Below, in pieces: positions 1-24,818 of a stretch of DNA of 30,835 bases. The notes below the pieces were generated by a model. That model was not told the DNA's origin. It did not search any database and saw only the letters and a program-made list of their open reading frames with translations. The stretch's first letter is position 1. Every line of letters starts with the position of its first letter. Location of the stretch: NCBI GenBank assembly GCA_050013715.1, contig JBEKES010000006.1, positions 1 through 30,835 on the forward strand, read 5' to 3'. Source of the DNA: Candidatus Micrarchaeaceae archaeon. GTDB lineage: Archaea; Micrarchaeota; Micrarchaeia; Micrarchaeales; Micrarchaeaceae. The position numbers and the translations under genes were made by a program.

Positions 1-65
1 CAATAAAAACTTACGTCGTAAAATAAATTTACTTATCAGAGGGCCTTTGCACTTCTGGCGTATAA

Positions 66-76
66 CGGCGAGGGCG
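66..76 (+). repeat. Cassette core 1
   Basis: CGGCGAGGGCG; an inverted T-arm-like motif GGGATTTGAACC lies at 186-197. Confidence 0.85.
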
Positions 77-272
77 GTTCATTTTCTTATAGTAAGTTGT
101 GCTAATTTTGATAAATTTTGACAGATTTTGTATAAGAAATCTTACTGCTCACTTCTTCGAGATAACACGTCTAGAAGTAAAGTAAGGGATTTGAACCGGC
201 AATCCAAACTCACATTTTTCATAAAAGTGAAACTATAAATACTATCTAAAACAGAGATAAAATGTTGATAAC

Positions 273-980
273 ATGGTAGAAACGGTTAAAAGGACTGGTA
301 AAGTATTTGAACTTGGAAATCCTTACCTTAATGAAGGTGGCTCTTGTTATTTTTGGCCTAGTGGCAACCGCGAATCTAATGTGGCTCTTTTTAGAAATAA
401 AAAAGATGCTTTAGGGGAGCACCTTGTTACAATGATAAGAGAATATAACAAAAGCTTAGAAACTAGAATGGAAGAGCCACATTATCCTAGATTACAATTA
501 GCAGATGAGAGCATAACAATCCATATAGGTAACGGTGGAAGATGGTTCGGATTGGGTTATGATATTGGTGGTGGTATTATGTCAATGCATAACCTCGATT
601 CATATGTTGATAGAATTCTGGCATTTAATGTAACTTCAGATTGCCTAGAGTTTTTGCACAAAGATATGAAAGCACCTAAAATAATACCTGAAGGAAATGA
701 AATATATAAAATTGAATATCCGTTGCCAGAGGGTTATAGTTTACTACCAATGAATAGTCCATTTTTACTTAATAGAGATTTGCTAAAACGGATTTGTAAT
801 GTATCTAAAATAGGATTTTTGGGCATTAAAGAACAAAAAACCAAACAAGAAGTATTACTTGATGGTGCTAAAGTAAATATAGAAGATGGCATTTGTATTG
901 GAGAGGGCTTTAAAAGATGGGGTGTTCCACGCTCTACATATTTACTGGCAAAATTAGTAGACTCCTGTACTTTTAACTAA
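273..980 (+). CDS. Hypothetical protein (cassette 1 cargo)
   Basis: 235-aa ORF preceded by a variant of the shared cassette promoter (TATAAATACTATCTAAAACAGAG, 234-256). Confidence 0.75.
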   Translation: MVETVKRTGKVFELGNPYLNEGGSCYFWPSGNRESNVALFRNKKDALGEHLVTMIREYNKSLETRMEEPHYPRLQLADESITIHIGNGGRWFGLGYDIGGGIMSMHNLDSYVDRILAFNVTSDCLEFLHKDMKAPKIIPEGNEIYKIEYPLPEGYSLLPMNSPFLLNRDLLKRICNVSKIGFLGIKEQKTKQEVLLDGAKVNIEDGICIGEGFKRWGVPRSTYLLAKLVDSCTFN

Positions 981-1091
981 ATGTCAACGGTTCAAATAAT
1001 TTTGTGTCGTAAATATTATTGGAATAAAGCTTGTTTATTATAGAGATTTTGAATAAGTTTTCATAAAATAATTAAATCTTCTATAAGAAAA

Positions 1092-2194
1092 GGGGTGTCC
1101 GATAAATAGGTAAATTGAAACCCATTTATCAGTATCATTATTTTGACTGGTTCAGAAAACGAATTTTGCGTTTGGAACTTTGAATACATTATGTATATTC
1201 ACTCTTGTAATCAGTTCCTTTTGTCTCATTTCTTTAAGTTTTGAAGAGATTCCTTCACCAAACGTCTTTTTGAAACTCCAAATTTCACTCTCTATGTGCG
1301 GTCGTTTGTTGTAACCTGATTTTTGTTTCCATTTCTTCTGATTTATCATTCTATGTCTATTTTCTGTTTGCATATGCAAAACAGATTCTCTCCCAGGTCC
1401 ATCTCGCAATCCAAATTGTTCTACAACATGTTTCTTACGAATACCTCTACATTTTATCATTGAATTTCTACGTACTGGTATTACCGCCACAATACCATTT
1501 CTCTCCAGATACCTGAATGTTTTTTCAGAGTCAAATGCACCATCTGCCAATAACTTTTCTAATATTCCCAGAAAAGGATCCAACAACCTTTTTACTACTT
1601 TATTATCATGTATGTATTCTTTTGTTTGTACCATGTTCAATATCTGACCTGTTTTGTCATCTATAAAGAAATGCGTCTTTATCCAACTTTTACGCACTCT
1701 GTATCGCTTACCGCACCATTCATTACTACCTGTTTTCTTCAATCCTGTTGAATCTATTATTCCTACTATTTTATCCTTGGTAAAATTAGAGAATAATCTA
1801 AATTTGATCCCAAATTTTTCCATTTTATTAATTCTCCACCATAATGTCCTAAAATCTGGAATTTTTGGTACTTTCAACTTATCCTTTATCATTTCCATAA
1901 ATCCAGTTACCTGTCTATAACCGTATCTCAACATTGATTTTGCGGTAAATCCTAATAAAATCAGATACGGATTGTAACTAAAAGGCCTGCCTCTCTTCTT
2001 TTTGTTGTTTGATAAAAGGACTTCTTCTGCCATCTGCAAAGATTCTTCCGAAATGTACAGGGTAAAATTACCCCTATTTACTAACATCTGGTTATATAAT
2101 TTCCAATTTCTAGGTGTTCTCATTCTGGTCGCCAAAGTCCAGAATACTCCTAAGGTTTTATACCTTAGGGTTTAGTGGAATTATTGGACACCCC
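1092..2194 (-). mobile_element. IS5-family (IS903-like) insertion sequence, 1103 bp
   Basis: Terminal inverted repeats GGGGTGTCCGATAA (1092-1105) and TTATTGGACACCCC (2181-2194), 13/14 match; flanking direct repeat TATAAGAAAA at 1082-1091 and 2195-2204. Confidence 0.92.
1152..2135 (-). CDS. IS5-family DDE transposase
   Basis: N-terminal NWKLYNQMLVNRG (IS903-like); IIDSTG, LADGAFD and Y-x2-R-x3-E-x6-K (YNKRPHIESEIWSFK) DDE motifs. Confidence 0.92.
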   Translation of the reverse strand: MATRMRTPRNWKLYNQMLVNRGNFTLYISEESLQMAEEVLLSNNKKKRGRPFSYNPYLILLGFTAKSMLRYGYRQVTGFMEMIKDKLKVPKIPDFRTLWWRINKMEKFGIKFRLFSNFTKDKIVGIIDSTGLKKTGSNEWCGKRYRVRKSWIKTHFFIDDKTGQILNMVQTKEYIHDNKVVKRLLDPFLGILEKLLADGAFDSEKTFRYLERNGIVAVIPVRRNSMIKCRGIRKKHVVEQFGLRDGPGRESVLHMQTENRHRMINQKKWKQKSGYNKRPHIESEIWSFKKTFGEGISSKLKEMRQKELITRVNIHNVFKVPNAKFVF

Positions 2195-2219
2195 TATAAG
2201 AAAAGTAAGATACATATAA

Positions 2220-2300
2220 GGGCTTCAATCCGCCGGATTGAAGATCGGCGAGGGCGGACTTCGACGTGTCGCAGTCGAAATTAGCCGAGTTCAAATCCCT
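2220..2300 (+). repeat. Cassette junction 2: hairpin + core + tRNA-like arm
   Basis: CTTCAATCC-GCC-GGATTGAAG hairpin; core at 2246-2256; TTCGAC-GTGTCGCA-GTCGAA hairpin; GAGTTCAAATCCC. Confidence 0.88.
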
Positions 2301-2361
2301 TAATTTTTGTAAAAATAAACACATAAATATCTAATAAAACAAAGTAAATTAAGTGATAGAA

Positions 2362-2814
2362 ATGCCAAGAGGAAACTTAATGGTAGTTACGTTGAAGCAA
2401 CATCTATTTCCAAGTGAAATAGAGCTTAGAAGAAACGCAACTTTAGATAAACCTTCAAAGAAAATTCCAGCTACGCTATGGTTAGATAAGCGTGATCATG
2501 ATCCAGAATACATATGGTTGGGTGTACCAACAGGTATTACTTCAGAAGCTTATAATGGCGTAAATAAAGGTAAAAATACAACTTTTGCTTGTCTCGATCG
2601 CAAAGAAGTAATTGCATTAAAAAGAGAATTGGTTTAATTTCCCAGAAAAGAGGAAAAAGGAAGACGTAAGAGATTGGCCATAAATAGAAGAGGACTTAAA
2701 CTTAATGATTTGCGTAGAAAAGAAATAGAGCAACAACAAACAGAAGAATTGAAACTACACCACGAGAGAATAACTCAAACACAGGGAAGAATGAGGGATA
2801 GAATACATTTTTGA
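2362..2814 (+). pseudogene. Hypothetical protein interrupted by an in-frame TAA at 2635-2637
   Basis: ATG 2362 follows the shared promoter/GTGA RBS; the same frame stays open for 58 more coding-like codons (FPRKEEKGRRKRL...DRIHF) to TGA 2812-2814. Confidence 0.55.
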
Positions 2815-2822
2815 GTGAGTAA

Positions 2823-3344
2823 ATGGCAATTCAAACGAAACCAAAAGTACCTATCGATACTCAAAGAGTTGGGAATATTATAGATGATTGGGCAAGAAAA
2901 ACTGGAAATGGCAATCTCTTAGTTCTTGGGGTATTATCTGCTGCAAGATTAAACAATTATTTATATGAATTAGAACATGTAAAAAAACAAATTGTAAAGG
3001 GAGATTTAAACAAGAGAGATATTAAAAACGCATTAAAAATTGGAATTATAAGAATAGGTATGATTCAATCAGATCATATACATCAACTTTCATTATCAGG
3101 AGAAAATGAACTTGTGATATATTTACCAATATTAAGATATTCGGAAGAGTTAAACTCGTATTTCGGAATTACACCACAAGAACTTAGAGAGGTATTGATT
3201 GATGGTGTAGTTGGTATATTAAGATTTGGAGACGCTCGTTCAGCACAAATTATTGCTACGGTTGCAAACTTGAGCAACGAAGAATTAGGTGCTGGATTAA
3301 AGAGGGCAGAGTCTGATAAAACCATCAAGCTTAGAAGTGAGTGA
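2823..3344 (+). CDS. Hypothetical protein (cassette 2, second gene)
   Basis: 173-aa ORF with the leader TTTTGAGTGAGTAAATG, identical to that of ORFs at 3553 and 9111. Confidence 0.75.
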   Translation: MAIQTKPKVPIDTQRVGNIIDDWARKTGNGNLLVLGVLSAARLNNYLYELEHVKKQIVKGDLNKRDIKNALKIGIIRIGMIQSDHIHQLSLSGENELVIYLPILRYSEELNSYFGITPQELREVLIDGVVGILRFGDARSAQIIATVANLSNEELGAGLKRAESDKTIKLRSE

Positions 3345-3402
3345 TACGCTTCTTTCCATAATGAAGTAGTAATGTGTCAAATGACATACAATGCCATACA
3401 AA

Positions 3403-3494
3403 GGGAAGTTGGTATCACGATACCAGTTCTCGGCGAGGGCGGACTTCGACGTCATTTCGACTGTAAGAGGGAGTGATACACGGTTCAATCTCTT
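3403..3494 (+). repeat. Cassette junction 3
   Basis: TGGTAT-CACG-ATACCA hairpin; core at 3431-3441; GGACTTCGACGTC; CGGTTCAATCTC. Confidence 0.85.
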
Positions 3495-3510
3495 ACCTTT
3501 TCGAAAAGGC

Positions 3511-3552
3511 ACATATAAATATCTAATAAAACAGAGTATTTTGAGTGAGTAA
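3511..3552 (+). promoter_or_regulatory. Shared cassette promoter/RBS module (TATA box + GAGTGA)
   Basis: ATATAAATATCTAATAAAACAGAGTATTTTGAGTGAGTAA-ATG; identical at 9071-9113, close variants at 2321-2364, 4815-4857 and 9880-9922. Confidence 0.75.
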
Positions 3553-3732
3553 ATGACAACAAAAAATTATCCATTGGTAAAAGATACGGATTACAAATTA
3601 ACAAATCTTTCACAGTTGTTCGAAGTCCCAAAAACTGAGAATGTGGTTGTTATACATCATAGAGATTCACTTTTTGTACTAAAAAGGATAAGCAGCACTA
3701 TGTTTTGGGAAACCAACGTACTTAGAACTTAA
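3553..3732 (+). CDS. Small hypothetical protein, 59 aa (cassette 3 cargo; not in the ORF track)
   Basis: MTTKNYPLVKDTDYKL...WETNVLRT*, directly after the shared promoter/RBS. Confidence 0.6.
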   Translation: MTTKNYPLVKDTDYKLTNLSQLFEVPKTENVVVIHHRDSLFVLKRISSTMFWETNVLRT

Positions 3733-3846
3733 CAAATTAGTTTTATCTTCATAAAGATTAGCGGAATAAACAGTTTCTTATAGGGAAGTTACAAATATGA
3801 TACTCAAATAATTAAGTTCTATATAAGCTCCATAAGAAATCAATAA

Positions 3847-3990
3847 GGGCTTCAATCCGACGGATTAAATATCGGCGAGGGCGTCTTCCTTTTTGTAAAG
3901 CCCCCACCTAAAGAAATAAGACATGTCATATCGAAGACAGAGAGTTCAAATCCCATACTGGGCGCATGCTATTAGGGTTCAAATCCTAAT
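3847..3990 (+). repeat. Cassette junction 4
   Basis: GGGCTTCAATCCGACGGATTAAATAT then core at 3873-3883; GACATGTCATATCGAAGACAGAGAGTTCAAATCCC; second T-arm-like hairpin ATTAGG-GTTCAAAT-CCTAAT at 3971-3990. Confidence 0.85.
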
Positions 3991-4040
3991 TAAAAGAGTA
4001 AAACTTCAGATATTTAATACCTTAATTCTTAATTTAGATT

Positions 4041-4688
4041 ATGAAATCCAAGATAAAGTCATTTTTAATTTTTAAAAATAGCAAAGTAAGGAAAATTCCT
4101 AAAGAATTCCAATCTGACGATAATCGTAATCCAGAAAGTTTAGTTGCATACTTCTTGAAAGAATTTACTAAAAAAGGAGATACTGTTTTTGACCCGTTTA
4201 CAGGTTTAGGTACAACTTTGATAGTAAGTGAACAGATGGGTAGAATTCCATTTGGTATAGAATTAGATAAAAAGAGGACAAATTATGTTAAATCTCAAAT
4301 AAAAAATAAACAAAATTTAATTAATGGTAATTCAAAAAATTTAAGTTCATATAAATTACCTTTATTTGATTTCTGTTTTACCTCACCATTATACACGCAT
4401 AATAATGGTAAACCTTACAAACGATATTTAAAGAATATATATGAAATTTTTGCTCAGCTAAAAAACCTAATGAAAAAGAATTCTTACTTAGTTATTGAAG
4501 TATCTAACCTAAAAGATAAAGATGTTACGACCCTTGCATGGGATATAGAAAAAGAAGTTTCTAAAGTTCTCCATTTTGAAGGTGAAATAGTTATTGGTTG
4601 GAAAGGAAAAGATAGTTATGACGATGATGGAAGTTATGGCTATGGATACGACCATAGTTACTGTCTTATCTTTAGAAATGTAAAATAA
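4041..4688 (+). CDS. Orphan amino (N4-C/N6-A-type) DNA methyltransferase-like protein
   Basis: SAM-binding motif VFDPFTGLGTT, GIELD, and catalytic-type motif FTSPLY (SPPY variant). Confidence 0.75.
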   Translation: MKSKIKSFLIFKNSKVRKIPKEFQSDDNRNPESLVAYFLKEFTKKGDTVFDPFTGLGTTLIVSEQMGRIPFGIELDKKRTNYVKSQIKNKQNLINGNSKNLSSYKLPLFDFCFTSPLYTHNNGKPYKRYLKNIYEIFAQLKNLMKKNSYLVIEVSNLKDKDVTTLAWDIEKEVSKVLHFEGEIVIGWKGKDSYDDDGSYGYGYDHSYCLIFRNVK

Positions 4689-4748
4689 TTATAAATCCTT
4701 TACCTTTATCTAAGACAAAGAGTAGGTGTTAAACATATGATTAAAGAA

Positions 4749-4803
4749 CGGCGAGGGCGGACTTAGACGTGTCGCAGTCGGAGAACGCAGGCTTCAAAGC
4801 CAT
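4749..4803 (+). repeat. Cassette junction 5
   Basis: Core at 4749-4759, then GACTTAGACGTGTCGCAGTCGG...GGCTTCAAAGCC. Confidence 0.85.
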
Positions 4804-4854
4804 AAAAAAACACAATATAAATATCTAATAAAACAAAATATAATTGTGATAAAA

Positions 4855-5304
4855 ATGTCTGAATATATAAAATCTCAACGTACTGAAAGAACTCAATTAC
4901 CAGTGCATACGAGTTCAGAAACTTTTACAGTAAAAGATCAGAAGTATGTGGTTCTTAGATATCCTGAAAATAAAGGACCAAATTTAAAACAGGCAATAGA
5001 GATAGAAAACAGCATTCCAGGAAAGAAGTTGCTTACAGGACAAGAAGCAAGAGAAATAATAAGCAATGATGAATTAAAAGTCGCATTTGAACATATATTG
5101 AAAATAGGCGAATGGACATATGTTCGTGATTCGGGAACTGAATCGCAGTCTCGAGCCGCTTACCTAATTTTCCTTAGATTCCGTTGTGGTGTGCACTTCG
5201 ACAGTCTGGATAGTATTGCTTCTCCAGTGGTAATTTTAAAAGAAACCAGCAAAGACATCGTCGCACCAAAAGATCCCGAACTGCTTAGAAAAACAGAAGC
5301 ATGA
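4855..5304 (+). CDS. Hypothetical protein (cassette 5 cargo)
   Basis: ORF after the shared promoter; ATG 4855 follows a GTGAT RBS. Confidence 0.75.
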   Translation: MSEYIKSQRTERTQLPVHTSSETFTVKDQKYVVLRYPENKGPNLKQAIEIENSIPGKKLLTGQEAREIISNDELKVAFEHILKIGEWTYVRDSGTESQSRAAYLIFLRFRCGVHFDSLDSIASPVVILKETSKDIVAPKDPELLRKTEA

Positions 5305-5467
5305 GCCCAAAATAATTAATACTAATCTTTACATAACTTTACATAAAAGTATGTAGTTTAGGGATTTGGCCACAAAATTAGCGGAATTAACACGTTTCTT
5401 ATATGAGTGTAGCAGATTTGTTACGAAAATAATTAAGTTTCATATAAGCTCCATAAGAAATTAATAA

Positions 5468-5515
5468 AGGCTTCAATCCGACGAATTGAATATCGGCGAG
5501 GGCGAACTTCGACCC
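5468..5515 (+). repeat. Cassette junction 6
   Basis: GGCTTCAATCCGACGAATTGAATAT, core at 5494-5504, then AACTTCGAC. Confidence 0.85.
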
Positions 5516-5532
5516 ACCGGTGGTAAAAAGCA

Positions 5533-5563
5533 AACAGTTAAATAGTTTAACTGTTCAACTGTT
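5533..5563. promoter_or_regulatory. Probable antitoxin operator
   Basis: Perfect inverted repeat AACAGTTAAA-TAG-TTTAACTGTT (5533-5555) plus an extra AACTGTT half-site just upstream of the antitoxin. Confidence 0.6.
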
Positions 5564-5577
5564 ATACTGTGATTAAT

Positions 5578-5838
5578 ATGGAAGAAGAATTAGTTAAAAT
5601 GTCTGAAAAAGGCCAATTGGTAGTGCCAAGAAAAATACGACAAAAGGAAGGCTTCAAAAACAGTGACAGATTCATTGCAATAGGTGTTAAAGATGGCGTT
5701 CTATTCAAAAAGATAAATATACCGAAGGTCAAGATAGAATTTGAATCGTTATCTAAAGAGATACAAGCCCATTTCAAAAAAGAAGGCATCACAAAAGCAG
5801 ATGTCGCAGAGGCAGTTAAATGGGCAAGAGAAAGATAG
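5578..5838 (+). CDS. AbrB/MazE/SpoVT-family antitoxin (VapB-like)
   Basis: KMSEKGQLVVPRKIR swapped-hairpin motif; overlaps the PIN gene. Confidence 0.88.
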   Translation: MEEELVKMSEKGQLVVPRKIRQKEGFKNSDRFIAIGVKDGVLFKKINIPKVKIEFESLSKEIQAHFKKEGITKADVAEAVKWARER

Positions 5839-6233
5839 TACTTGATACAAACATACTTATCTCAGCTCTTGGCTGGGAAGGTAATCTAAGCAAGATACTG
5901 GATAAAGTTGTGGATGGAGAGCTTGAGTTTTTCATATCTTATGATCAATTCAATGAGTTCTTAAGGGTTATTAACTACCCGAGATTGAAATTTAGCGAAG
6001 AACAAAAGGCAAGATTTGAGGCACTCATATCTAACCTGGCAACGTTTGTAAAAACACAAGATATACTTGACGTAATAAAAGATGATCCTTCGGACAACAT
6101 GATTTTGGAATGTGCTTTAGTTGCGAATGCAGACTATATTGTATCCGGAGACCTAAAGCATGTTCTTCCAATTAAAAAACTTGGGAGAATAAAGATTGTT
6201 ACTGCAAAAGAGTTTCTTAAATTACTGAAATAA
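5820..6233 (+). CDS. PIN-domain toxin (VapC-like)
   Basis: IVLDTNILISAL, DDPSDNMILECA and IVSGDLKH PIN motifs. Confidence 0.9.
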   Translation: MGKRKIVLDTNILISALGWEGNLSKILDKVVDGELEFFISYDQFNEFLRVINYPRLKFSEEQKARFEALISNLATFVKTQDILDVIKDDPSDNMILECALVANADYIVSGDLKHVLPIKKLGRIKIVTAKEFLKLLK

Positions 6234-6271
6234 ATATATATAATATCATTTAATATCAAACAATAGTATCT

Positions 6272-6349
6272 GGGAAGTTTACTTAAAGTCACGCTTCCGG
6301 CGAGGGCACCTGCTAAATTACACGTCTAAGAATTGGGGTTTAGATCCTG
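6272..6349 (+). repeat. Cassette junction 7
   Basis: GGAAG...CTTCC hairpin; core at 6298-6307; TTACACGTCTAAGAATTGGGGTTTAGATCC. Confidence 0.85.
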
Positions 6350-6388
6350 TTTAGAGATGAGAACACTCAAGGGCTAGTAAAGCATAAT

Positions 6389-6814
6389 TTAAACTATCTT
6401 CTTTTCATCCGCTACGAATATCCAGTGCCGATGGAATTTATCATACATCTGCCCGTACATTCCAAAATGCATCTGGTGCATTTCTTGGAACCTATCTTTC
6501 TCTGCCCCAACCGCAAGCTTATCAAATACAGACTTTACCTCTTCATAATTGCCAGTGACAAATATAGCATACATCTCTCCAAGTATGGGTTCATACTGGG
6601 GTGCAGCCATCCAGTCGGTAGCTGATATTTCTATAATGCCACTTTTCAGATACGCATTTATTATCCGATTATGTTTCTCTTTTGGTATCATTTCTTTCAT
6701 GGGCGTGTCGCCAAGCTTTGTCAATCTCAATTCTCCTCCGAAGCATTCGTGGTAGAAGGTCATCGCTTCAGCACAGTTACCGTCAAACAGAAGAAATGGC
6801 GTAGTCTTTAACAT
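6389..6814 (-). CDS. VOC-family (PhnB-like) protein
   Basis: TPFLLFDGNCAEAMTFYHECFGGEL...FGMYGQMYDKFHRHW; GGGTGA RBS before ATG 6814. Confidence 0.88.
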   Translation of the reverse strand: MLKTTPFLLFDGNCAEAMTFYHECFGGELRLTKLGDTPMKEMIPKEKHNRIINAYLKSGIIEISATDWMAAPQYEPILGEMYAIFVTGNYEEVKSVFDKLAVGAEKDRFQEMHQMHFGMYGQMYDKFHRHWIFVADEKKIV

Positions 6815-6880
6815 ATTTTTCACCCTTTCTTATCTAATACATAAATCAAAAGATAATACTTTTGCCCAGTTAAGATTCAG

Positions 6881-6955
6881 CCTTATTTTTTCTTACCCCT
6901 TTACCAAGCACCAAGGGAGAGATGTTATCATAAGGCAAGAAGACCGGCGAGGGCG
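6881..6955 (+). repeat. Cassette junction 8
   Basis: Left arm CCTTTACCAAGCACCAAGGGAGAGATGTTATCATAAGGCAAGAAGAC closely resembles that of junction 11; core at 6945-6955. Confidence 0.85.
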
Positions 6956-6982
6956 TTTCTTATATGTTGCTCCATTTTCATA

Positions 6983-7795
6983 TTATCCACCAATTGCGAT
7001 ATTTCTAAGCAAAGTCGAAATTCTTACTGCAGAAGCTCTTTCTTGACCTAGCTTTCTAGATATTTTCTTGCTAGCCTCTATTAATTTTATAATGCTTTTG
7101 ATCTCTTCTGATCCAACAATCCTCTTGGTACAGACCTCTAAACACCGAATTGCATCTGCTCTTTGTCCAAATTTTATGTAAACATCTGCAAGATCTACCA
7201 AACTTGGTAACGTACTTTCAAATGAACTAGTATTTCCTGGTCTAATCTCCCAGTAATAATTTGCAAGTCCCAAAGCCATTTCTTTATTATCTAGTTCAGT
7301 CCAGATTTTCGCAAGCCTTACTACGGTATCCAAATCATTAGCATCATAAGCTCTATAACCACCTGCAGATCCCCCACCGAAGCCTAGCCAACCACCTCCT
7401 GTTGTATGTCCGAACTCCAGTGTTCTTGCTTCCTTTGCTAAGCTTTCTGCTATACTTTTCTTCCCAACTTTAAGGCAAAGCTCTGCCGCTTTTGCAATAT
7501 GGGAACTCCATTTATGATCCTTATATCCATTTGCGATCTTTTGGGCGCAGTCTTCTGCCTTGCTAACAAGCCCAAGCCCCAAGTATATAGAACCTGCATC
7601 ATAAAGATCGAAGTAATCTCTACTAGCAAGAACATCTGCGCAGAGCTTTGCTCTTTTTCTATCGCCAGTCTTAAGCCATCTATGGCCTGCCTCTGCATAG
7701 TTTCTATTTATATTCAGTTTCAGTTCCTCTATCTGGGCGCTTGTTAGCTTATCTTCCATTCTAATATGTGCTTCTTTTATTGCTTTATTTCTCAT
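6983..7795 (-). CDS. Alpha-helical repeat (TPR-like) hypothetical protein
   Basis: Repeated A-x2-Y/C-L-x-x-G-x4-A helices and a Gly-rich loop; GGTGA RBS. Confidence 0.6.
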   Translation of the reverse strand: MRNKAIKEAHIRMEDKLTSAQIEELKLNINRNYAEAGHRWLKTGDRKRAKLCADVLASRDYFDLYDAGSIYLGLGLVSKAEDCAQKIANGYKDHKWSSHIAKAAELCLKVGKKSIAESLAKEARTLEFGHTTGGGWLGFGGGSAGGYRAYDANDLDTVVRLAKIWTELDNKEMALGLANYYWEIRPGNTSSFESTLPSLVDLADVYIKFGQRADAIRCLEVCTKRIVGSEEIKSIIKLIEASKKISRKLGQERASAVRISTLLRNIAIGG

Positions 7796-7994
7796 GTTCA
7801 TCACCTATTAATTTTAATATAAGTATACCGAGTTCTGTTAGGTCAACAGTTCCGTTCCATTCTAAAAGGCCCTGTTTCTTAAGAATTTGTGCGTTCAGTT
7901 TAAGAGTAGAAAGAGGCACATTGTAATATTTTGATAGATTCCTAAGCAATGCTGTTATATTCTTGTTCCCATCAACACTTGAAAGAATTAGCAA
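7785..7994 (-). CDS. Small winged-helix protein; start uncertain, possibly frameshifted
   Basis: LSKYYNVPLSTLKLNAQILKKQGLL...VDLTELG wHTH pattern. The frame stays open upstream to ~8078 without an ATG, while the RBS-linked ATGs (8077/8074) are out of frame. Confidence 0.55.
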   Translation of the reverse strand: MLILSSVDGNKNITALLRNLSKYYNVPLSTLKLNAQILKKQGLLEWNGTVDLTELGILILKLIGDEHEK

Positions 7995-8206
7995 CTGGTT
8001 TTCATTCAGTGATTTTCTTACGATTGATCCTAAGCCTGCTTTCTGTTTTGCAGATATGTAAATTGGCTTGGCATCATCTCACTTTTGTTTGTAGTATCTT
8101 TACTAATTATATAGTTATTTAAAGCAATTGGACAGTTTTAGCTGACCAAACATGCAGAGAGCCTAGACCAAATTCCTCTGCCTTTACAGAAAACAACAGG
8201 TTTATA

Positions 8207-8243
8207 TACTAGTTAGTACATATATATTACTAATTAGTACATA
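8207..8243. promoter_or_regulatory. Tandem palindromic operator
   Basis: TACTAGTTAGTACATA (8207) and TACTAATTAGTACATA (8228), 21 bp apart, immediately before the gene pair. Confidence 0.6.
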
Positions 8244-8246
8244 AAA

Positions 8247-8534
8247 ATGATTGAAATGGCGAAAATGATTATGGTACAAAGACTCAAGTATGCACCTACA
8301 CTTAATACAGTCATTATGGTAGAAAATGTCATAAAAAATTCTAAAAATTCCGTAATAACTATACCTGAAATAAAAAGAGCACTACCAAAGCAGGTAAACC
8401 ATGCAAAGCTTAAGATAATACTTGAGTATCTTGAAGAGAGTAATAAGATAGCTGTTACCATGAAAGGCATAACTTGGATACATAATACAAACCCTAAATT
8501 AAAAAAGGCTATTGAAAGAGGCATGGAAGTATGA
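8247..8534 (+). CDS. Small wHTH protein, putative antitoxin
   Basis: PTLNTVIMVE...ILEYLEESNKI; overlaps the next gene (ATGA). Confidence 0.6.
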   Translation: MIEMAKMIMVQRLKYAPTLNTVIMVENVIKNSKNSVITIPEIKRALPKQVNHAKLKIILEYLEESNKIAVTMKGITWIHNTNPKLKKAIERGMEV

Positions 8535-8884
8535 AACCTGTACGAGTGATTCTTTCAGAAGATGCAAGTGAAGTCTACAAATACCTTAATAGTAGGGCGT
8601 CAGATTCTAAAGTAGAGAGGAGCATATTGAAATCAGTTAAGAGCAAATTGGAATTGATAAAAGTAAATACACATTATGGTGAACCAATACCAAAACAATT
8701 AATTCCGAACGAATATAAAGTTAAGTATGGGATAACAAACTTATTTCATGTTGAACTATCTAATTTTTGGAGAATGTTATATACATTGACAAATGATGAG
8801 GAAGAAGTAGAAATAATCGCATTTGTACTTGATATTACAGATCACGAAACTTACAATAAGAAGTTTGGATATAAGAGACATTAA
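8531..8884 (+). CDS. RelE/ParE-superfamily-like toxin
   Basis: VILSEDASEVY...NTHYGEPI...NLFHVELSNFWRMLYTL...DHETYNKKFGY; RelE-like layout in a two-gene operon. Confidence 0.6.
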   Translation: MKPVRVILSEDASEVYKYLNSRASDSKVERSILKSVKSKLELIKVNTHYGEPIPKQLIPNEYKVKYGITNLFHVELSNFWRMLYTLTNDEEEVEIIAFVLDITDHETYNKKFGYKRH

Positions 8885-8939
8885 CAAATGCTTATATCTG
8901 ATATCATCTAATAGTATTCGACATCATTTAACATCATAC

Positions 8940-9000
8940 GGGAAGCACTCCTGAAGCTGGGCTTCCGGCGAGGGCGTTACACTGCCGGGTTGAAGCCCTG
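8940..9000 (+). repeat. Cassette junction 9
   Basis: GGAAGC...GCTTCC hairpin; core at 8966-8976; TTACACTGCCGGGTTGAAGCCC. Confidence 0.85.
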
Positions 9001-9110
9001 ATCATAGTCCTAATGGTAAGTCAAAAAATCCAGTTTAAATTCTTGAAAAGGATTTGGACTAAAAAAGAACATATAAATATCTAATAAAACAGAGTATTTT
9101 GAGTGAGTAA

Positions 9111-9737
9111 ATGACTAATCATGATAATTTGTCACGAAGAGCAAAGACAATACATTCAACATTAGACAATAGCAAATTAGTGCTTGGAATATTTACAGTT
9201 TCAGGTGAACAATCAAGGTTGTCAATTCGTATGGGACAAGGACCTAACGGAGCTAGCGGAACTTTTAGTGTTGAAGGAGCAGAATCAATGAACAATTTTC
9301 TCAATAACTTTCTTAGGCAAGGAAGTGAATTTAAATTGATTATCCTATCCGAAAGATTAAGTGAAAGAACAGCAAGACTCATTCAAAATAAAGCAAACTT
9401 GTTAGAATGCTATTTAGATGAAGATATTCTTAGAAATATCAAAACTAGACGTGTATTATTTATAGATTATTGCGATGCACCAAAAGAAGTCGGTTGGTAT
9501 TTTGTAGATAAAAATAATAAAACATTTCAAAGTATTTCTGAAGCTGAGTATAATGAGTTAGCATGGAATGAAAGATTATATGTTTATCCTCAAGCTTCTA
9601 AGGCAATTGAAGAAAAACGCCCATTAGTATTTGGTTATACTTGTACAAGAACTACGTTGCAAAATGGGGTTCTATTTCTTGGAGATAATTTTAATACTGA
9701 TGATGCCGCTCAAGTAGTTTTGAAGTTAAGTAGCTAA
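9111..9737 (+). CDS. Hypothetical protein (cassette 9 cargo)
   Basis: 208-aa ORF after the shared promoter. Confidence 0.75.
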   Translation: MTNHDNLSRRAKTIHSTLDNSKLVLGIFTVSGEQSRLSIRMGQGPNGASGTFSVEGAESMNNFLNNFLRQGSEFKLIILSERLSERTARLIQNKANLLECYLDEDILRNIKTRRVLFIDYCDAPKEVGWYFVDKNNKTFQSISEAEYNELAWNERLYVYPQASKAIEEKRPLVFGYTCTRTTLQNGVLFLGDNFNTDDAAQVVLKLSS

Positions 9738-9786
9738 AAATTAATTATAAAACAGAGTACACTCTTTACATAAAAGTATGTAGTTT

Positions 9787-9866
9787 GGGGCTTTAGCGCA
9801 AAAAGCTAATGCTCGGCGAGGGCGGACTTCAACGTGTCGCAGTCGAAGAAATAAGGCTTCAAAGCT
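9787..9866 (+). repeat. Cassette junction 10
   Basis: GGGC-T-TTAGC...GCTAA-T-GCTC hairpin; core at 9814-9824; GACTTCAACGTGTCGCAGTCGAA...GGCTTCAAAGC. Confidence 0.85.
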
Positions 9867-9919
9867 ATAAAAAAGTACAATATAAATATCTAATAAAACA
9901 GAGTATTTTGAGTGGTATT

Positions 9920-10615
9920 ATGACAACTAAAATAGGGTCGCGGCTAAGTACGGCTGCAAAAGAAAGATTATGTGAAACTTTCGGTAAATATTTGAACAAA
10001 AGAGATCCAGATATGGGTCATACTGCTGCAGATTTTATCATAAATAGTATGCTTGACAGCAAGATATTGCAAAACCAAACTTTAACAAATAAATTTGTAG
10101 AAATTGTTACAAAAAATTATGGATCTTATCCAGAAGCAGCAATGAATTTATCAGTGCCTCTTGATAATGATGTATATAATATGGGAGAAAAAGAATTTGA
10201 TAATTATTTATTTATAATAAGTAGCCCTAACTTTTTGACAGGATTAATATCCTTTGAGAACATGAGCAATGTAATTCATCATTTTTCAGAAAGGATGGCA
10301 TTCAGGGCAGCAGACAAGGCAACAGATGCAAAAGATGAGTTATATGCGGTCCTTGATTCTTTAAAAGACCCAAATGTCATATCATTAGTGCATGGGATTA
10401 TTGGTAGTCCTGCCGAAGATGGGGTTTTAGAAATAATTTCTTATGCTCTTCAATATGGTATTGAACCAACTAAAAAAGTTGGTGAGATATTAACAATTAT
10501 GAAAGACACACCAAGAGCAGTTGAAGCTATACGTAAAATTAGTGATGAATTCGCTAAATACGTTGCTGACGATGTTAAAGCTAAATCAGAAAATATGGGA
10601 TTATCTAGAAAATAA
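9920..10615 (+). CDS. Hypothetical protein, 231 aa (cassette 10)
   Basis: Likely start is ATG 9920 after the shared promoter; the track's 9809 start runs through the junction. Confidence 0.75.
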   Translation: MTTKIGSRLSTAAKERLCETFGKYLNKRDPDMGHTAADFIINSMLDSKILQNQTLTNKFVEIVTKNYGSYPEAAMNLSVPLDNDVYNMGEKEFDNYLFIISSPNFLTGLISFENMSNVIHHFSERMAFRAADKATDAKDELYAVLDSLKDPNVISLVHGIIGSPAEDGVLEIISYALQYGIEPTKKVGEILTIMKDTPRAVEAIRKISDEFAKYVADDVKAKSENMGLSRK

Positions 10616-10625
10616 AGTGATATAA

Positions 10626-10967
10626 ATGCCCACTGTAAATATCTATTATAAAACCAAAAGAGACGGTGCAACTCTAAAACCTGTTATACCAAAGCTAAAG
10701 ACGTACCTAGCCAAGAAACTAACCTGTGGCGAAATTAAGCTAAGGCAAGATGAAATAAGCGTGAGACCCATTAAAGTTGAAGGTAATGGGATGCTTGGTA
10801 GGGTAGAAGTTGATATTGTTGCTCATGAATTTGCTGAAAGAGTAAAGAATCAGGATAAGATATGTTTTGATACTAAGCAATGGCTAGAAAAAGAAGCTAG
10901 ACCAATAGATAATTTCAGAGTCTGGCTTAATCTAGGACAATTAGGACATGATGTACTGCCTACTTAA
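10626..10967 (+). CDS. Hypothetical protein, possibly tautomerase/MIF-like fold
   Basis: N-terminal Pro (MPTVNIYY), beta-alpha-beta pattern, GTGAT RBS. Confidence 0.55.
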   Translation: MPTVNIYYKTKRDGATLKPVIPKLKTYLAKKLTCGEIKLRQDEISVRPIKVEGNGMLGRVEVDIVAHEFAERVKNQDKICFDTKQWLEKEARPIDNFRVWLNLGQLGHDVLPT

Positions 10968-10970
10968 TTT

Positions 10971-11077
10971 CCTTGTACCTTTACTAAGTAGCAAGGGAGA
11001 AATGTTATCGTAACGATTGAAGACCGGCGAGGGCAACTGAGACGTTACACATCTAGGAATTGGGGTTAAAAGCCCTC
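10971..11077 (+). repeat. Cassette junction 11
   Basis: Left arm like junction 8; core at 11025-11034; right arm TTACACATCTAGGAATTGGGGTTAAAAGCCC like junction 7. Confidence 0.85.
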
Positions 11078-11229
11078 ATTTTCTAGAGATAAAATCGATT
11101 GTAATCTAAAAATAGCTTTATATATTTAAAACTCCATAATTGAATAGTGATTGAATAGTCTTAATAAGCAGAAATATTGAAAATGAACATGAAAGAGCAG
11201 TAGTTTGGGGTGTTAACCCTGCATTATGC

Positions 11230-11649
11230 ATGCCAAAAGTTAGTGGAAGGCAAAAATTATTAAATGATAATTTACGAATAGCTGCAATTAATGGTAATAT
11301 TGAAGGCGTAAAAGTAGCCATTAAGGATGGTGCAAATGTGAATGCAGTAGACCCAAATAATGGAACAGCTTTGGTAGATGCTGCATCCCGAAATTATGTT
11401 GAAATAGTAAATGTACTTTTGGATAATAAGGCTGATGTTAATGTGGCTACTTACCCTAATCGGATGACTGCTTTGATGTACGCATCAAATAATGGATATA
11501 CTGAAATTGTTAGGGCACTACTTGATAAAAATGCTGATGTTGAACGAAGAAACTGGGATGGCAATAATGCAATAAATTTTGCAAGAGAAAATAGCCATGG
11601 CAAAATCTTAACTTTGTTAGAATCGCATCTACTTAGAAAAACTAATTAA
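11230..11649 (+). CDS. Ankyrin-repeat protein
   Basis: About 4 repeats: AAINGNIEGVK..GANVN, TALVDAASRNYVEIV..ADVN, TALMYASNNGYTEIVRALL. Confidence 0.93.
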   Translation: MPKVSGRQKLLNDNLRIAAINGNIEGVKVAIKDGANVNAVDPNNGTALVDAASRNYVEIVNVLLDNKADVNVATYPNRMTALMYASNNGYTEIVRALLDKNADVERRNWDGNNAINFARENSHGKILTLLESHLLRKTN

Positions 11650-11677
11650 GTACAAATCATAAACCATTATCATATTG

Positions 11678-11724
11678 CGGGCTTTTTCTTTTTATGGCGT
11701 AAATGAAAAAGCTCGGCGAGGGCG
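11678..11724 (+). repeat. Terminal cassette junction 12 (attR-like)
   Basis: CGGGCTTTTTC...GAAAAAGCTCG hairpin running into the core at 11714-11724; no tRNA-like arm follows. Confidence 0.85.
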
Positions 11725-14069: not shown

Positions 14070-15194
14070 TTATTTCAATATTGCATCCATGCCTAGAAAT
14101 CTTCCGTATCTTTCTGCTTCTTCTCTGATTCCTTTCATGTTATCTTTGTTCAATTTTACGTAATGCTTTAGTGCAACTACAACCTTGTCCTTCACGATCT
14201 TCCTGCTCCATGTGCCTACTACTTCTCCATTAACAACTATCACAGGGACGAATATTCCGTTGCTGTAGATGATTGCAGGTTTTTTATAATCATTTATCGT
14301 ATTTTTCAATGTTCTCTGAAGTTCAGGATTGGAAAGCATTGCGCTTCTATCGGCATAGCTTACGAGATATTCGTCAAAAGCAGGCAAAAGATGCACCGAA
14401 TTATCATTACTACGCAGTTTTGGAATATGCTTTGGCATGTAGTATGTAATGCCATCTATGCTTTCTTCGGCAAGCTTTGATTTCATGTGTTCTATGCCAA
14501 TCCTTGCATCGCTGACCTTTAAACCTGACCACCATACATAATCCTTGATTGTTGCTGGGCCATGGCTTGAAAAGTCCCTAAGGGCAAGCTCGGCGTTCGC
14601 CTGCTCCTGAGAAAGCTCGTTCCTCCTTGTTATGTGCTCGTCCAGCAGCACAAACGTCTGCTCCCTGCCTTCATATGGTCCGAAGCATATGAGGCCGTCC
14701 CAGGCCGCCCTATAGAGCATATGGTAGCCAAGGTTGGATCCCAGCCCATTATTGGACTTGATTCCTGCTTTCTCAAGAACCTTATACATTTCTTTCCGTG
14801 TGAGATGCTTTCCTCCCTTCAGCGCATTGTAGAACATTGTCTTTGTCTTCTCCACAACTTTGTCGCTCAGCCCCAGGTGTCTGTCCCTTACCATTGCCGT
14901 GCTTAGAAGCCTAGGTGCAAAGAGCTTCAGCATCCAGTGTATATCGGAGGAAGTAGCAAAATGCAGGGTGCCCCTCATGAGCCATGTCCTTGAGATTTTC
15001 CTTTTGGCTATCGCATTTTCAATGTCCTTAATTGTGGTGCCGTCTTTGCATCTTAGCCCCATGGCCCACAGCGAAGCGGGGTAATCCTGAGCCTGCATTG
15101 CTCCCATGGAATTCAACACCTCTTCAGGTGTATTTAGTCCATTGCCGATGTGCTGAGATGAAAGCCTATAATTAATAATATCTGAGATATCCAT
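14070..15194 (-). CDS. AlkZ/YcaQ-family (HTH_42) DNA glycosylase-like protein
   Basis: AMQAQD (QxQ), RTWLMRGTLH, HGPATIKDYVWWSGL, LLPAFDEYLVSYADR. Confidence 0.88.
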   Translation of the reverse strand: MDISDIINYRLSSQHIGNGLNTPEEVLNSMGAMQAQDYPASLWAMGLRCKDGTTIKDIENAIAKRKISRTWLMRGTLHFATSSDIHWMLKLFAPRLLSTAMVRDRHLGLSDKVVEKTKTMFYNALKGGKHLTRKEMYKVLEKAGIKSNNGLGSNLGYHMLYRAAWDGLICFGPYEGREQTFVLLDEHITRRNELSQEQANAELALRDFSSHGPATIKDYVWWSGLKVSDARIGIEHMKSKLAEESIDGITYYMPKHIPKLRSNDNSVHLLPAFDEYLVSYADRSAMLSNPELQRTLKNTINDYKKPAIIYSNGIFVPVIVVNGEVVGTWSRKIVKDKVVVALKHYVKLNKDNMKGIREEAERYGRFLGMDAILK

Positions 15195-18360: not shown

Positions 18361-18642
18361 TTACTTTGTACTGGAAAGCGCATCCTGAAGCGCATTCGCC
18401 AGCTTTATTACCTTTCTGCCTTTTTCTGTCGTATTATATGCTATTATCCTTCTTCCTGTTTTCGATTTATACACCACCGCCTCTACTGCTTTTACCTCGA
18501 TAAGCTCATGAAGCCTTTTGGCTACGGTTGCAGAGCTCAATCTCCTTTTCTTGATTGTTATCTTTGTAAAATCGTTAAAGTTTTTGGGTTCGCTGCTGTC
18601 AGCCATCTCTAATATTTCCAAGTACCCTCTTATCATTACCAT
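18361..18642 (-). CDS. Winged-helix (HxlR-like) regulator, paralog 1
   Basis: FNDF...LSSATVAKRLHEL...AYNTTEKGRKV. Confidence 0.8.
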   Translation of the reverse strand: MVMIRGYLEILEMADSSEPKNFNDFTKITIKKRRLSSATVAKRLHELIEVKAVEAVVYKSKTGRRIIAYNTTEKGRKVIKLANALQDALSSTK

Positions 18643-18684
18643 GGTAATAAATTGAAACGATACATATATAAAGTAAGCAGGTTT

Positions 18685-18771
18685 ATAATACTTTAATTTC
18701 TAAAGTTTAATTTAAATATATCTTTTTTTAATAGAACTAAAGTATAATTTAAAATAGGAAAGTAATATATA
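18685..18771 (-). promoter_or_regulatory. Divergent promoter/operator, copy A
   Basis: Reverse complement aligns to ~23093-23179 and ~24413-24502; palindrome ACTTTAATTTCTAAAGT at 18690-18706. Confidence 0.7.
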
Positions 18772-19063: not shown

Positions 19064-19291
19064 TCAAATGCAATGGTTCAAACGCTAAACTAACTGTTTA
19101 ATGATTCTTCACGCTTGAAAAGCTTTCAGGAAAATAGTGGATGGAAATGGATTTTGAAACGGTTTGCTTGTGGTTTTATATACCAGTAAAATTCTTGCAC
19201 CGTTTCTAAATCATGTTTTATTTGTGCTGATTTAACATTGCTTGATGATTTTTTAAATCATGAATTAGGTAATTATTGTTTAGTGGTTATA

Positions 19292-19900
19292 ATGGTGAAA
19301 GAACCTGTAGATATGCTTAGCAAAAGCCGAATAGAAGCTCTTACTGACAGTTTATTCGCAACTGTAATGACAATCCTTGTGTTAAGCCTTGTCGTTCCGA
19401 TAATAATAACAGGATCCAATACGAACATACTGCTTATCTCATCAATAATATCAATGCTTCCCGGCATTCTTGTTTATGTGACCAGTTTTATAATTCTTGG
19501 AGTAATATGGATAGAGCACAACAACATTTTCCGTTATGTTCATGAAGTGGACAACAGAACACAATGGATAACAATATTCTTCCTATTAAGCGTAGGCATT
19601 ATACCGTTTAGCACCGCATTCCTGGGACGATATCCTCTGCAGCAGCCCGCAATAATATTATATTCCATAAATTTCATCATAATTGCGCTCATGTTTAACC
19701 TCATTGCATACCATGTTATGCATTACCAGAAAAAGAGAAACATACGCCGCATCAGTAGGGCAGCAAGAAGCACATCGATATCGCTCATAATATATGCAAT
19801 AGCAATACCTGTTTCCTATCTAAATTCCTACATAAGCCTTGGCCTATTTGTTATAGTGCCTGCATATTACATAATCTCTGGACTGCGCAACCCATCCTGA
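19292..19900 (+). CDS. TMEM175-family (DUF1211) potassium channel
   Basis: RIEALTDSLFATVMTILVL, YVTSFIILGVIWIEHNNIF, IPFSTAFLG. Confidence 0.88.
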   Translation: MVKEPVDMLSKSRIEALTDSLFATVMTILVLSLVVPIIITGSNTNILLISSIISMLPGILVYVTSFIILGVIWIEHNNIFRYVHEVDNRTQWITIFFLLSVGIIPFSTAFLGRYPLQQPAIILYSINFIIIALMFNLIAYHVMHYQKKRNIRRISRAARSTSISLIIYAIAIPVSYLNSYISLGLFVIVPAYYIISGLRNPS

Positions 19901-23060: not shown

Positions 23061-23192
23061 CACACCCTTAAGTATCTATTAGTTTATTATACTATATAAT
23101 ACTTTGCTATTTTAAATGATACTTTACTTCTATTAGGAATAAATATATTTAAAATAAACTTTAGAAACTAAAGTATTATATATGTGAAGCTC
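23061..23192 (+). promoter_or_regulatory. Divergent promoter/operator, copy B
   Basis: Paralogous to 24380-24514; palindrome ACTTTAGAAACTAAAGT at 23158-23174. Confidence 0.7.
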
Positions 23193-23217
23193 CTATTTAT
23201 ATCAATATGGTGCTTAC

Positions 23218-24379: not shown

Positions 24380-24514
24380 CACACCCTTACAAATACATAT
24401 TAGTTTATTATAATATATAATGCTTTGCTATTTTATATATTACTTTACTTCTATTAAATATATTCATATAATTAAAATATACTTTAGTAACTAAAGTATT
24501 ATATATGTAGAGCT
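24380..24514 (+). promoter_or_regulatory. Divergent promoter/operator, copy C
   Basis: Palindrome ACTTTAGTAACTAAAGT at 24481-24497. Confidence 0.7.
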
Positions 24515-24527
24515 TCAATGTAATAAC

Positions 24528-24818
24528 ATGGCAATGATAAGGGGATTTATGGAGATCCTTCAACTGGCTGACGGGAAGGAATCTAAATCATTTAACGATT
24601 TTACGAAGATATTGATTAAGAAAAGGAAACTAAGCTCTGCCACTGTCTCAAAAAGACTTGATGAACTTATTAATGTAAAAGCTATAGAAGAAGTAGTGGG
24701 CAGGTCAAAAACAGGAAGAAGGACAATAGCATACAGAACAACAGAAAAAGGCAAAATGGTAATGGGGCTGGCAAGGGAGCTTCAAAGGGTAACCACAATA
24801 CCAAATGTGGCCAAATGA
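24528..24818 (+). CDS. Winged-helix (HxlR-like) regulator, paralog 2
   Basis: Closely similar to 18361-18642 (MIRG.EIL..FNDFTKI.IKKR.LSSATV.KRL). Confidence 0.8.
   Translation: MAMIRGFMEILQLADGKESKSFNDFTKILIKKRKLSSATVSKRLDELINVKAIEEVVGRSKTGRRTIAYRTTEKGKMVMGLARELQRVTTIPNVAK

Follow-up and report, generated by a model that had tools for sequence, protein, structure and literature searches.

A stack of thirteen integrase-less gene units behind tRNA-Arg(GCG) in a Micrarchaeota genome

Results

Layout of the array and cargo of its units

The window, being the whole stretch of DNA that was analysed, comprises the first 30,835 bases of contig C6 of genome G000 (976,605 bases in 72 contigs, 92.9% complete). 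Between positions 66 and 11723 it carries 12 copies of the core 10-mer CGGCGAGGGC, all on the + strand and starting at 66, 2246, 3431, 3873, 4749, 5494, 6298, 6945, 8966, 9814, 11025 and 11714, compared to a mean of 0.16 and a maximum of 2 copies in shuffled sequence. The preliminary description had placed a core at 11714..11724 with a consensus G as its 11th base and had called this copy 12 the outermost one. Our recount agrees, with G in 10 of the 12 copies (A in those at 6298 and 11025), and beyond 11724 the window holds no additional core, even with up to two mismatches allowed. The copy at 11714..11724 (+) thus closes the array as an attR-like copy of nucleotides (nt) 63-73 of a tRNA-Arg gene. 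Genome-wide, the exact 10-mer occurs 14 times, 12 times on C6 and twice on contig C29.

The array consists of 13 integrase-less units of about 0.44-2.2 kb behind tRNA-Arg(GCG), mostly containing one or two genes, and two of these units start on C29. Unit 1 (C29:10382-10928) measures 546 bp. Unit 2, of about 811 bp, runs from C29:10928 to window position 66 and encodes a 231-aa membrane protein; its right end and core copy 1 (66-76) occupy window positions 1..76 (+). Unit 3 (66..2256, +, 2180 bp, terminal core 2246-2256) combines a 235-aa ORF (273-980) without Pfam match with an insertion sequence (IS) at 1091..2195 (-). This IS lies in the trailer of the unit, encodes a DDE transposase (1152-2120; PF01609 2e-18, PF13737 2e-12) and possesses 15-bp terminal inverted repeats (14/15 matching) and an 8-9-bp target duplication. 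The element, which we take to belong to the IS5 family, is a later passenger and not the recombinase of the array. The diverged end of a related IS showed a higher depth in two peat runs.

Unit 4 (2246..3441, +, 1185 bp) starts with a hairpin-type left arm and a conserved promoter/RBS leader, followed by two ORFs without Pfam match (2362-2637 and 2823-3344), and unit 5 (3431..3883, +, 442 bp) consists of a leader and a 59-aa ORF (3553-3732). A DNA methyltransferase gene (4041-4688; PF01555 2e-16) occupies unit 6 (3873..4759, +, 876 bp), of which the left arm is common to unit 2 and to units in two relatives (G009 and G010), and the right arm to a unit at the tRNA-Asp gene of G000 itself. Unit 7 (4749..5504, +, 745 bp) again has a leader, here before a 149-aa ORF (4855-5304). 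The two genes of unit 8 (5494..6308, +, 804 bp), an AbrB/MazE-like antitoxin (5578-5838; PF04014 0.006, below cut-off) and a PIN toxin (5820-6233; PF13470 1e-15), probably form a VapBC-like pair.

Unit 9 (6298..6955, +, 647 bp), whose left core ends in A, contains a glyoxalase/VOC-like gene (6389-6814, -; PF06983 6e-4 and PF00903 1.5e-3, both below cut-off). Unit 10 (6945..8976, +, 2021 bp) holds a TPR-like gene (6983-7798, -), a small ORF (7785-7994, -), a 95-aa ORF (8247-8534) and a ParE/RelE-like toxin gene (8531-8884; PF05016 3e-4, below cut-off). Unit 11 (8966..9824, +, 848 bp) encodes a 208-aa ORF (9111-9737), unit 12 (9814..11035, +, 1211 bp) a leader with two ORFs without Pfam match (9920-10615 and 10626-10967), and unit 13 (11025..11724, +, 689 bp), again with a left core ending in A, an ankyrin-repeat gene (11230-11649; PF12796 2e-20). 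In total, 11 of the 20 array ORFs scanned were without Pfam match, and several of the other matches fell below the curated cut-off. Comparison of the cargo genes with each other revealed no paralogs and no conjugation genes were seen in the units, of which those in the window have a GC content of 0.29-0.40 compared to 0.407 upstream of the tRNA.

The anchor is tRNA-Arg(GCG)

ARAGORN detected no tRNA gene in the window. The preliminary description had read the core as the 3' end of a tRNA located upstream, and such a gene was indeed found on C29: the core matches nt 63-73 of tRNA-Arg(GCG) (G000:C29:10319-10392, ARAGORN; RF00005 54.4 bits, Rfam), a same-strand gene outside the window that precedes its position 1 by about 1.28-1.35 kb. 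Its 3' terminal 22 bases are exactly those predicted, and the first of the two C29 copies of the 10-mer is the 3' end of this gene. What did not hold was the identity proposed, a tRNA-Asp starting with GCCCTCG, as the gene starts with GCCCTTG, with a G-U pair. The tRNA-Asp(GTC) gene of G000, on C31, ends in CGGCCAAGGCG, a different core with a single unit of its own, and is ruled out as the anchor. The genes upstream of tRNA-Arg (endonuclease IV-like and histone-like) keep their synteny across the family.

The G000 assembly breaks at core copy 1, and repeats of at least 31 nt are shared between junctions. C29 ends and C6 begins with an 84-base overlap, identical at 82 positions. Moreover, a public contig (Ga0187851_10000691, locus L172) covers in one piece C29:10930-11757 at 99.9% and window positions 1-5279 at 99.98%; possibly originating from the same sample, it is evidence of contiguity and not of independence. 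Separately assembled contigs from four peat runs, of which the best is possibly the source sample, bridge 12/12 window junctions, and one of them extends 746 bases past position 1, which is the distance to the second C29 core. Based on the overlap, the spanning public contig and the bridging contigs, the array comprises the tRNA followed by 13 units, the predicted tRNA being both present and physically linked to it.

The same repeat rule at other tRNA genes

A T-arm plus acceptor scan showed that 14 of the 30 tRNA 3' ends in G000 have their own nt 63-73 repeated downstream, with 37 copies (32 exact) in 311 kb downstream, compared to none on the opposite strand and one in 334 kb upstream. Downstream of tRNA-Arg(GCG), 13 copies were found, with none on the opposite strand. 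Some of the tRNA labels are uncertain owing to introns. In a boundary test, only nt 66-72 were used as anchor, so that the boundary was not built in. This resulted in 37 same-strand versus 2 opposite matches, with an identity of 0.95 for nt 63-65 versus 0.43 for nt 62 at one side and 0.89 for nt 73 versus 0.38 for nt 74 at the other. The repeat is thus bounded by nt 63 and nt 73 and starts near the T-stem/acceptor junction.

The 37 units range from 362 to 3696 bp (median 804; 36/37 at most 2.2 kb) and total 36.7 kb, which shows where a roughly 1-Mb DPANN genome holds about 37 kb of accessory genes, in units of a kind that is skipped by integrase-dependent island finders. Arrays of 2-4 units, with the same boundary rule and related arms, are located behind other tRNAs (Leu-type, Val-type, Ser-type, Asn, Ala and Phe), at C2:42881-47045, C5:30545, C5:24057 (-), C7:9864 (-), C9:5717 (-) and C3:21032.

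Arms and leaders are shared between units with unrelated cargo

The unit ends fall into families common to units with unrelated cargo, among which a 100-nt left block present three times and right blocks of 67-111 nt. A 54-nt leader, present in five copies and reaching up to the start codon, contains a TATA box and an RBS, and is presumably a promoter, judging from archaeal motifs. Within these arm and leader families, units that carry different intact genes are 74-96% alike, and 5 of the 15 non-training matches of the leader motif fall in the 130-nt windows behind tRNA ends and cores, which make up 0.45% of the genome. Arms also recur at different tRNAs: Leu and Arg have a right arm and a left arm in common, and Asp and Arg share another right arm. 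Furthermore, nt 73 is A in two units of one left-arm family and again in G010, tracking this family, so that nt 73 travels with the arm.

Within the 13 units, the own left and right arms scored 88 in complementarity versus 91.4 for shuffled pairs (p 0.69), and only unit 11 reaches 15/26 in the inverted repeat seen in integrase-bearing elements; as own arms pair no better than shuffled ones, an inverted-repeat attP is not rebuilt by most units. At 14-60 nt past the core, many left arms contain a copy of the T-loop region of the host tRNA (behind tRNA-Tyr, 16 bases are exact), and several arms contain hairpins. As the T-loop copy is also present in the arms of intact integrase elements, it is more simply read as a putative protein-binding site. 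Folding of eight junctions as DNA gave no common structure (z -2.5 to +0.8, 3/8 below -2), and an attC-like or permuted T-arm fold was therefore rejected for these eight. Many left arms resemble as well those of a second, shorter integrase class with longer repeats, described below. The right arm of unit 13 (11680-11712) forms a strong hairpin and resembles arms of G010.

Recombinase search and candidate helper integrases

Profile searches of G000 (92.9% complete) with PF00589, PF00239, PF07508 and PF16795 yielded no matches, tblastn with integrases of relatives gave a best E value of 0.015, outside any unit, and an HMM built from these integrases found no recombinase; a strong HMM match on C9 was discarded, as it stems from a non-integrase ORF of L089 in the model. 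Similarly, tblastn and HMM searches detected an integrase remnant in none of the 37 units. No tyrosine recombinase, XerA included, was thus found in G000, although a helper integrase may be unassembled.

In contrast to G000, PF00589 is present in 8 of the 10 other genomes of the genus (this count, and those out of 128 genomes below, take in the unpublished G003 as a sampled genome, and one further tally G080 as well; no claim depends on these two). At the tRNAs of relatives two integrase classes occur, one of about 260-300 aa, with longer repeats where found, and one of about 400 aa, called class A here, a tyrosine integrase with a C-terminal four-cysteine zinc ribbon that is present in 33 of 128 family genomes. 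Class-A elements bounded by the 11-mer are found at tRNA-Arg(GCG) in G005 (6205 bp) and G129 (5556 bp), the former followed by an integrase-less unit of 891 bp. The intact Arg-targeting element of G005, with its class-A integrase at L044:1632-2813, encodes HNH and McrB-N/NucS nuclease genes, a defence-like cargo (L044:2815-6373), and a weak ADP-ribosyltransferase-like match was obtained for the small unit behind it.

With a tRNA-end finder, a tRNA end was located just upstream in 26 of 28 class-A loci. The far repeat was found in 15 of these 26, extending past nt 63 on the 5' side by 0 nt (14 loci) or 1 nt (1 locus). In 25 of 26 intact loci the integrase gene begins at the att site, some 60-125 nt into the element from its left end; it is oriented away from this site. 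In these 15 elements the arms are complementary at 14-22 of 26 positions in seven and at 2-10 in the other eight, and in six elements they pair best around a 7-nt spacer formed by nt 63-69 (11.7/20 versus 2.3-7.2 in 15 other registers). As such, 26-bp inverted arms flank nt 63-69 in about half of the class-A elements, and an arrangement with 7 bp exchanged between inverted binding sites is the classical one, as is stated for the tRNA-Ser-targeting mv4 integrase (10.1101/2023.11.06.565760).

The catalytic residues R164, K191, H256, R259, W281 and Y291 are invariant in 9/9 aligned class-A proteins (PF00589 1e-19), corresponding to the tyrosine recombinase set R, K, HxxR, H/W, Y. SNJ2-type integrases are described as having Gly/Ala in place of Glu/Asp and Ala/Val in place of His/Trp (PMC5861418), a signature absent from class A, in which E167 and W281 are invariant in the nine aligned proteins. 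The two candidate helpers score below the cut-off for XerA (NF040815 117 and 102 bits versus 220) and far below that for IntI (TIGR02249 39 and 27 bits versus 265), and no IntI was found in G000. The nearest named proteins are integrases of the pleomorphic viruses ThalV2 and GacPV1 (32-33% identity). A virus as helper was rejected: a single-protein search gave no close relative and an alignment search gave relatives of 26-36%, of which the 11 best-covered loci checked lack the 11-nt signature.

A tree of 27 class-A proteins, in which the target labels of L128, L141 and L142 were inferred from the core, comprises ten tRNA types and 14 target changes (minimum 9; 18.9 when shuffled, 0/200 as low), with five tRNA targets in one fully supported clade. 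Retargeting is therefore frequent but not free, and a single, fully tRNA-generic integrase is not supported, as close relatives keep their target. An integrase family that retains its 11-nt footprint while its target has changed among ten tRNA types is well suited to the study of specificity evolution.

Truncated or stop-bearing integrases occur in relatives, indicating that decay happens, and intact elements at the tRNA with small units behind them were found at L044, L115, L128 and L138. A small unit between the tRNA and an intact class-A element was not found in the loci inspected, which were picked for an integrase adjoining the tRNA; two candidates for such an arrangement turned out to be two tRNA-Asp genes (L111) and a long repeat of the other integrase class (L124). 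In two integrated elements, at about +7400-8500 (L128) and +2600-3700 (L121) from the tRNA, ORF pieces were observed that resemble a reverse transcriptase by motif.

Cores, cargo and an empty unit in relatives

Among 51 tRNA-Arg loci of relatives, ten carry the repeat in one or two exact copies, which is the maximum found, and the opposite strand has none; at least 10 kb of downstream sequence was available for 32 of these loci, and chance may account for two or three of the ten. With 13 units, the array of G000 is exceptional among these loci. Full-length tRNA duplicates (L048, L065, L071, L072, L079 and L080), mostly other Arg isoacceptor genes, were left out of these counts. Among them, L080 (G081:C7:21976-22321) contains three tRNA-Arg genes in a 136-bp tandem, of which at least two anticodons differ and the spacers are near-identical.

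In G010, at a site with no tRNA within 20 kb, an empty unit of 121 bp was found, whose two arms correspond to the left and right ones of unit 2 in G000. As both arms contain short direct repeats between which a deletion could produce it, the empty unit may be a deletion product. Arg-type cores and arms with no ARAGORN tRNA in 20 kb were observed at L173:10418-11622 (G010), L174:9135-10630 (G009) and L175:7111-10977 (G010), with a T-loop-like sequence before the first core; these may be secondary sites, displaced arrays or intron-split tRNAs.

Part of the array is matched in 20 of 128 genomes, and no whole unit was found in another species with two candidates per genome scored. In G055, a unit of 1329 bp at tRNA-Ala consists of a toxin-antitoxin pair homologous to that of unit 10. 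Among 21 loci with homologous cargo, only one was clearly a tRNA-anchored and core-bounded unit; about three more have a core beside the gene.

Discussion

A helper integrase as the probable driver of the array

Directly supported by the data are the anchor, its linkage to the array, the unit boundaries, the same signature on integrase-bearing elements and the finding of no recombinase in G000. We consider it probable, be it with considerable reserve, that the 11-mer is an attachment core from site-specific integration at the 3' end of tRNA-Arg(GCG) and that the units are non-autonomous cassettes moved by a helper integrase. This enzyme would most likely be a class-A tyrosine integrase, common in the Micrarchaeota family of G000. 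Judging from the inferred exchange points, strands would be exchanged across the 7 bp of nt 63-69 at the T-stem/acceptor junction, and nt 70-73 would be supplied by the element arm, by which the tRNA would be restored and nt 63-73 left at the far end. A cassette would be composed of a core, a left arm, often a promoter/RBS leader, one or two cargo genes, a trailer and a right arm, and would most likely enter or leave as a circle when a helper element supplies the integrase. New units would enter at the tRNA, and internal junctions may be integration targets as well.

The reading of helper-moved cassettes is supported by the lack of integrase remnants in the 37 units, though the gene abuts the left arm, by arms and leaders common to intact unrelated genes together with leader enrichment near cores, and by nt 73 travelling with the arm, the empty 121-bp unit of G010 and the 1329-bp unit of G055. 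Against it stand the own arms of most units, which do not form the inverted repeat (absent also from 8 of the 15 class-A elements), the many left arms resembling those of the second integrase class, the lack of a whole unit among the candidates scored in other species and of a small unit before an intact class-A element in the loci picked, and the broken integrases of relatives. The contigs of the four peat runs show the same array; neither excision, nor a circle, nor an empty-site strain was seen in them, and a joint of 3466 to 3872 that resembled an excision proved to be unit 1 of C29 mis-laid on similar arms. As to the order of arrival, it had been proposed beforehand that each insertion left one core and that the newest units are leftmost. 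A newest-at-tRNA order is consistent with the loci of relatives, as far as their sequences tell; the array itself comprises 13 units, including the two starting on C29.

Alternatively, the units might be immobile relics of larger integrase-bearing elements (or neighbour fusions), shrunk by internal deletion and never mobile when small, which we regard as unlikely though deserving serious consideration. The mosaic left and right arms, non-complementary within units, the intact elements at the tRNA with small units behind (L044, L115, L128, L138), the broken integrases in relatives and the empty G010 unit, obtainable by deletion between short direct repeats, all agree with such a fossil stack, and a three-step decay route is described for CIME accretion in Streptococcus (PMC5704250); yet an integrase fragment is present in 0/37 units despite the gene abutting the left arm, members of one arm or leader family remain 74-96% alike around different intact genes, and sizes cluster around a median of 804 bp with 36/37 at most 2.2 kb. 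We consider it improbable that a transposase-like enzyme, cutting tRNA 3' ends 11 bp apart and using one end family for any tRNA, produced the 11-mer as a target-site duplication. Near-identical arms flanking different cores (Leu versus Arg, Asp versus Arg) and the IS-type DDE transposase in unit 3 would fit with this, but nt 73 deviates from the tRNA together with one arm family, the same signature accompanies tyrosine integrases at ten tRNA types, and the IS is delimited by ends and an 8-9-bp duplication of its own. We give even less credit to an integron-type mechanism in which junctions are folded single-stranded attC-like sites, or to tRNA-like RNA structures for processing: the T-loop copies 14-60 nt after the core in many left arms and the hairpins in several point in this direction, whereas the eight folded junctions share no structure (3/8 with z below -2), the integrases score 39 and 27 bits against the integron-integrase cut-off of 265, and intact integrase elements have the T-loop copy in their arms as well. 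Finally, a mis-joining of the array or its tRNA link via repeats, conceivable as the assembly breaks at copy 1 and junctions share repeats of at least 31 nt, is practically out of the question with one public contig covering C29:10930 to window 5279 at 99.9% and 12/12 junctions bridged by separately assembled contigs, even if the best run is possibly the source sample.

Returning to helper-moved cassettes, integrase-less tRNA cassette arrays tied to a specific integrase family offer a testable geometry, with a 7-bp overlap at nt 63-69 and 26-bp inverted arms. A broader proposal, which we put forward tentatively and would sooner doubt than accept, is that Micrarchaeota possess a distributed, integron-like way of gene capture, with att scaffolds of ~120 bp, many with a promoter, that take up single genes, a zinc-ribbon integrase acting in trans, about half of the tRNA genes involved and the 7-11-bp core as a swappable address. 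If true, the same arms would move between tRNA loci by swapping this core address.

Comparison with known systems

Integrons and CALINs are arrays of one- or two-gene units, with toxin-antitoxin pairs and unknown ORFs. The array of G000 likewise consists of one- or two-gene units, including toxin-antitoxin pairs and unknown ORFs, with apparently one entry site, but unlike integrons it has no attC-like fold and no IntI, many units have their own promoter and a tRNA gene is the entry site. It works like an integron-style stack without being an integron, and is closest to CIME-type accretion, extreme in number, size and regularity.

CIMEs of the ICESt1/ICESt3 family are described as integrase-less elements that keep attL and attR and stand in tandem at a gene 3' end, with chimeric internal att sites usable by a neighbouring or incoming integrase (PMC5704250). 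The G000 units share with them the lack of integration or transfer genes, the preserved attL and attR and the tandem stacking, and differ in having 13 units per stack and 37 at 14 tRNAs, a median of 0.8 kb, an archaeal host, shared promoter leaders, an empty scaffold in a relative and no conjugation genes seen. As to whether they arose by CIME-like decay, the unit arms resemble those of integrase elements, and the 37 units contain no integrase remnants. Accretion at tRNAs has already been published, and the stack of G000 is an extreme case of this known gene stacking.

Islander describes a J subsite, with the crossover at the T-stem/acceptor-stem junction and the 3' fragment displaced downstream in the same orientation (PMC4383910), which corresponds to the intact tRNA upstream, the same-orientation 3' fragments downstream and the repeat from the T-stem/acceptor junction in G000. 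It requires an integrase per island and, for a total of 3919 islands, reports 4 tandem sets with at least three members (PMC4383910); the G000 units, without an integrase gene, would be filtered out. In the additive flexible genomic islands of Alteromonas with tRNA repeats, cassettes are gene clusters of which only some are reported to keep the repeat (PMC4898812), unlike G000, where the arms are conserved and every unit is bounded exactly at nt 63-73. Archaeal elements are reported with short att cores at tRNA 3' ends, with one site reused in tandem and with some integrase-less (PMC6563490, PMC8371274); the G000 units resemble these integrated elements in all three respects, and differ from the described ones, which are multigene. 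Class A in turn is unlike SNJ2-type enzymes in keeping Glu and Trp where SNJ2 has Gly/Ala and Ala/Val, and the location of its gene, at the att site and directed away from it, is a further difference from the known archaeal systems. Our literature search (titles and abstracts, mostly outside subscription journals) revealed no description of such Micrarchaeota arrays or of the class-A family, and short cores of a similar kind may be listed in the supplementary att tables of PMC5861418 and PMC6563490.

The region behind the array

Behind copy 12, the preliminary description expected backbone DNA. This holds only in part. No core follows; the DNA after 11724 is an older accessory region, with accessory-type genes and a GC content of 0.365 compared to 0.407 upstream of the tRNA, and its first bases may be the worn left arm of an older unit. 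No relative was found in which the tRNA is joined directly to a homolog of 11725 onward, as the preliminary description had suggested looking for, homology starting from 12555 only. For four stretches, homologs (71-76%) are present in G008, where they are ordered differently and lie 3.4-6.5 kb behind the same tRNA.

Further into this region, inverted paralogous winged-helix genes (18361-18771 and 24414-24818; 74% over 286 nt) and an AT-rich upstream block present three times (79-89%, including 23070-23199, with one before a glyoxalase gene) look like a small duplicated regulon. Other genes encode a TMEM175-like channel (19238-19900), an AlkZ-like glycosylase (14070-15194) and a dihydroorotate dehydrogenase (25604-26743).
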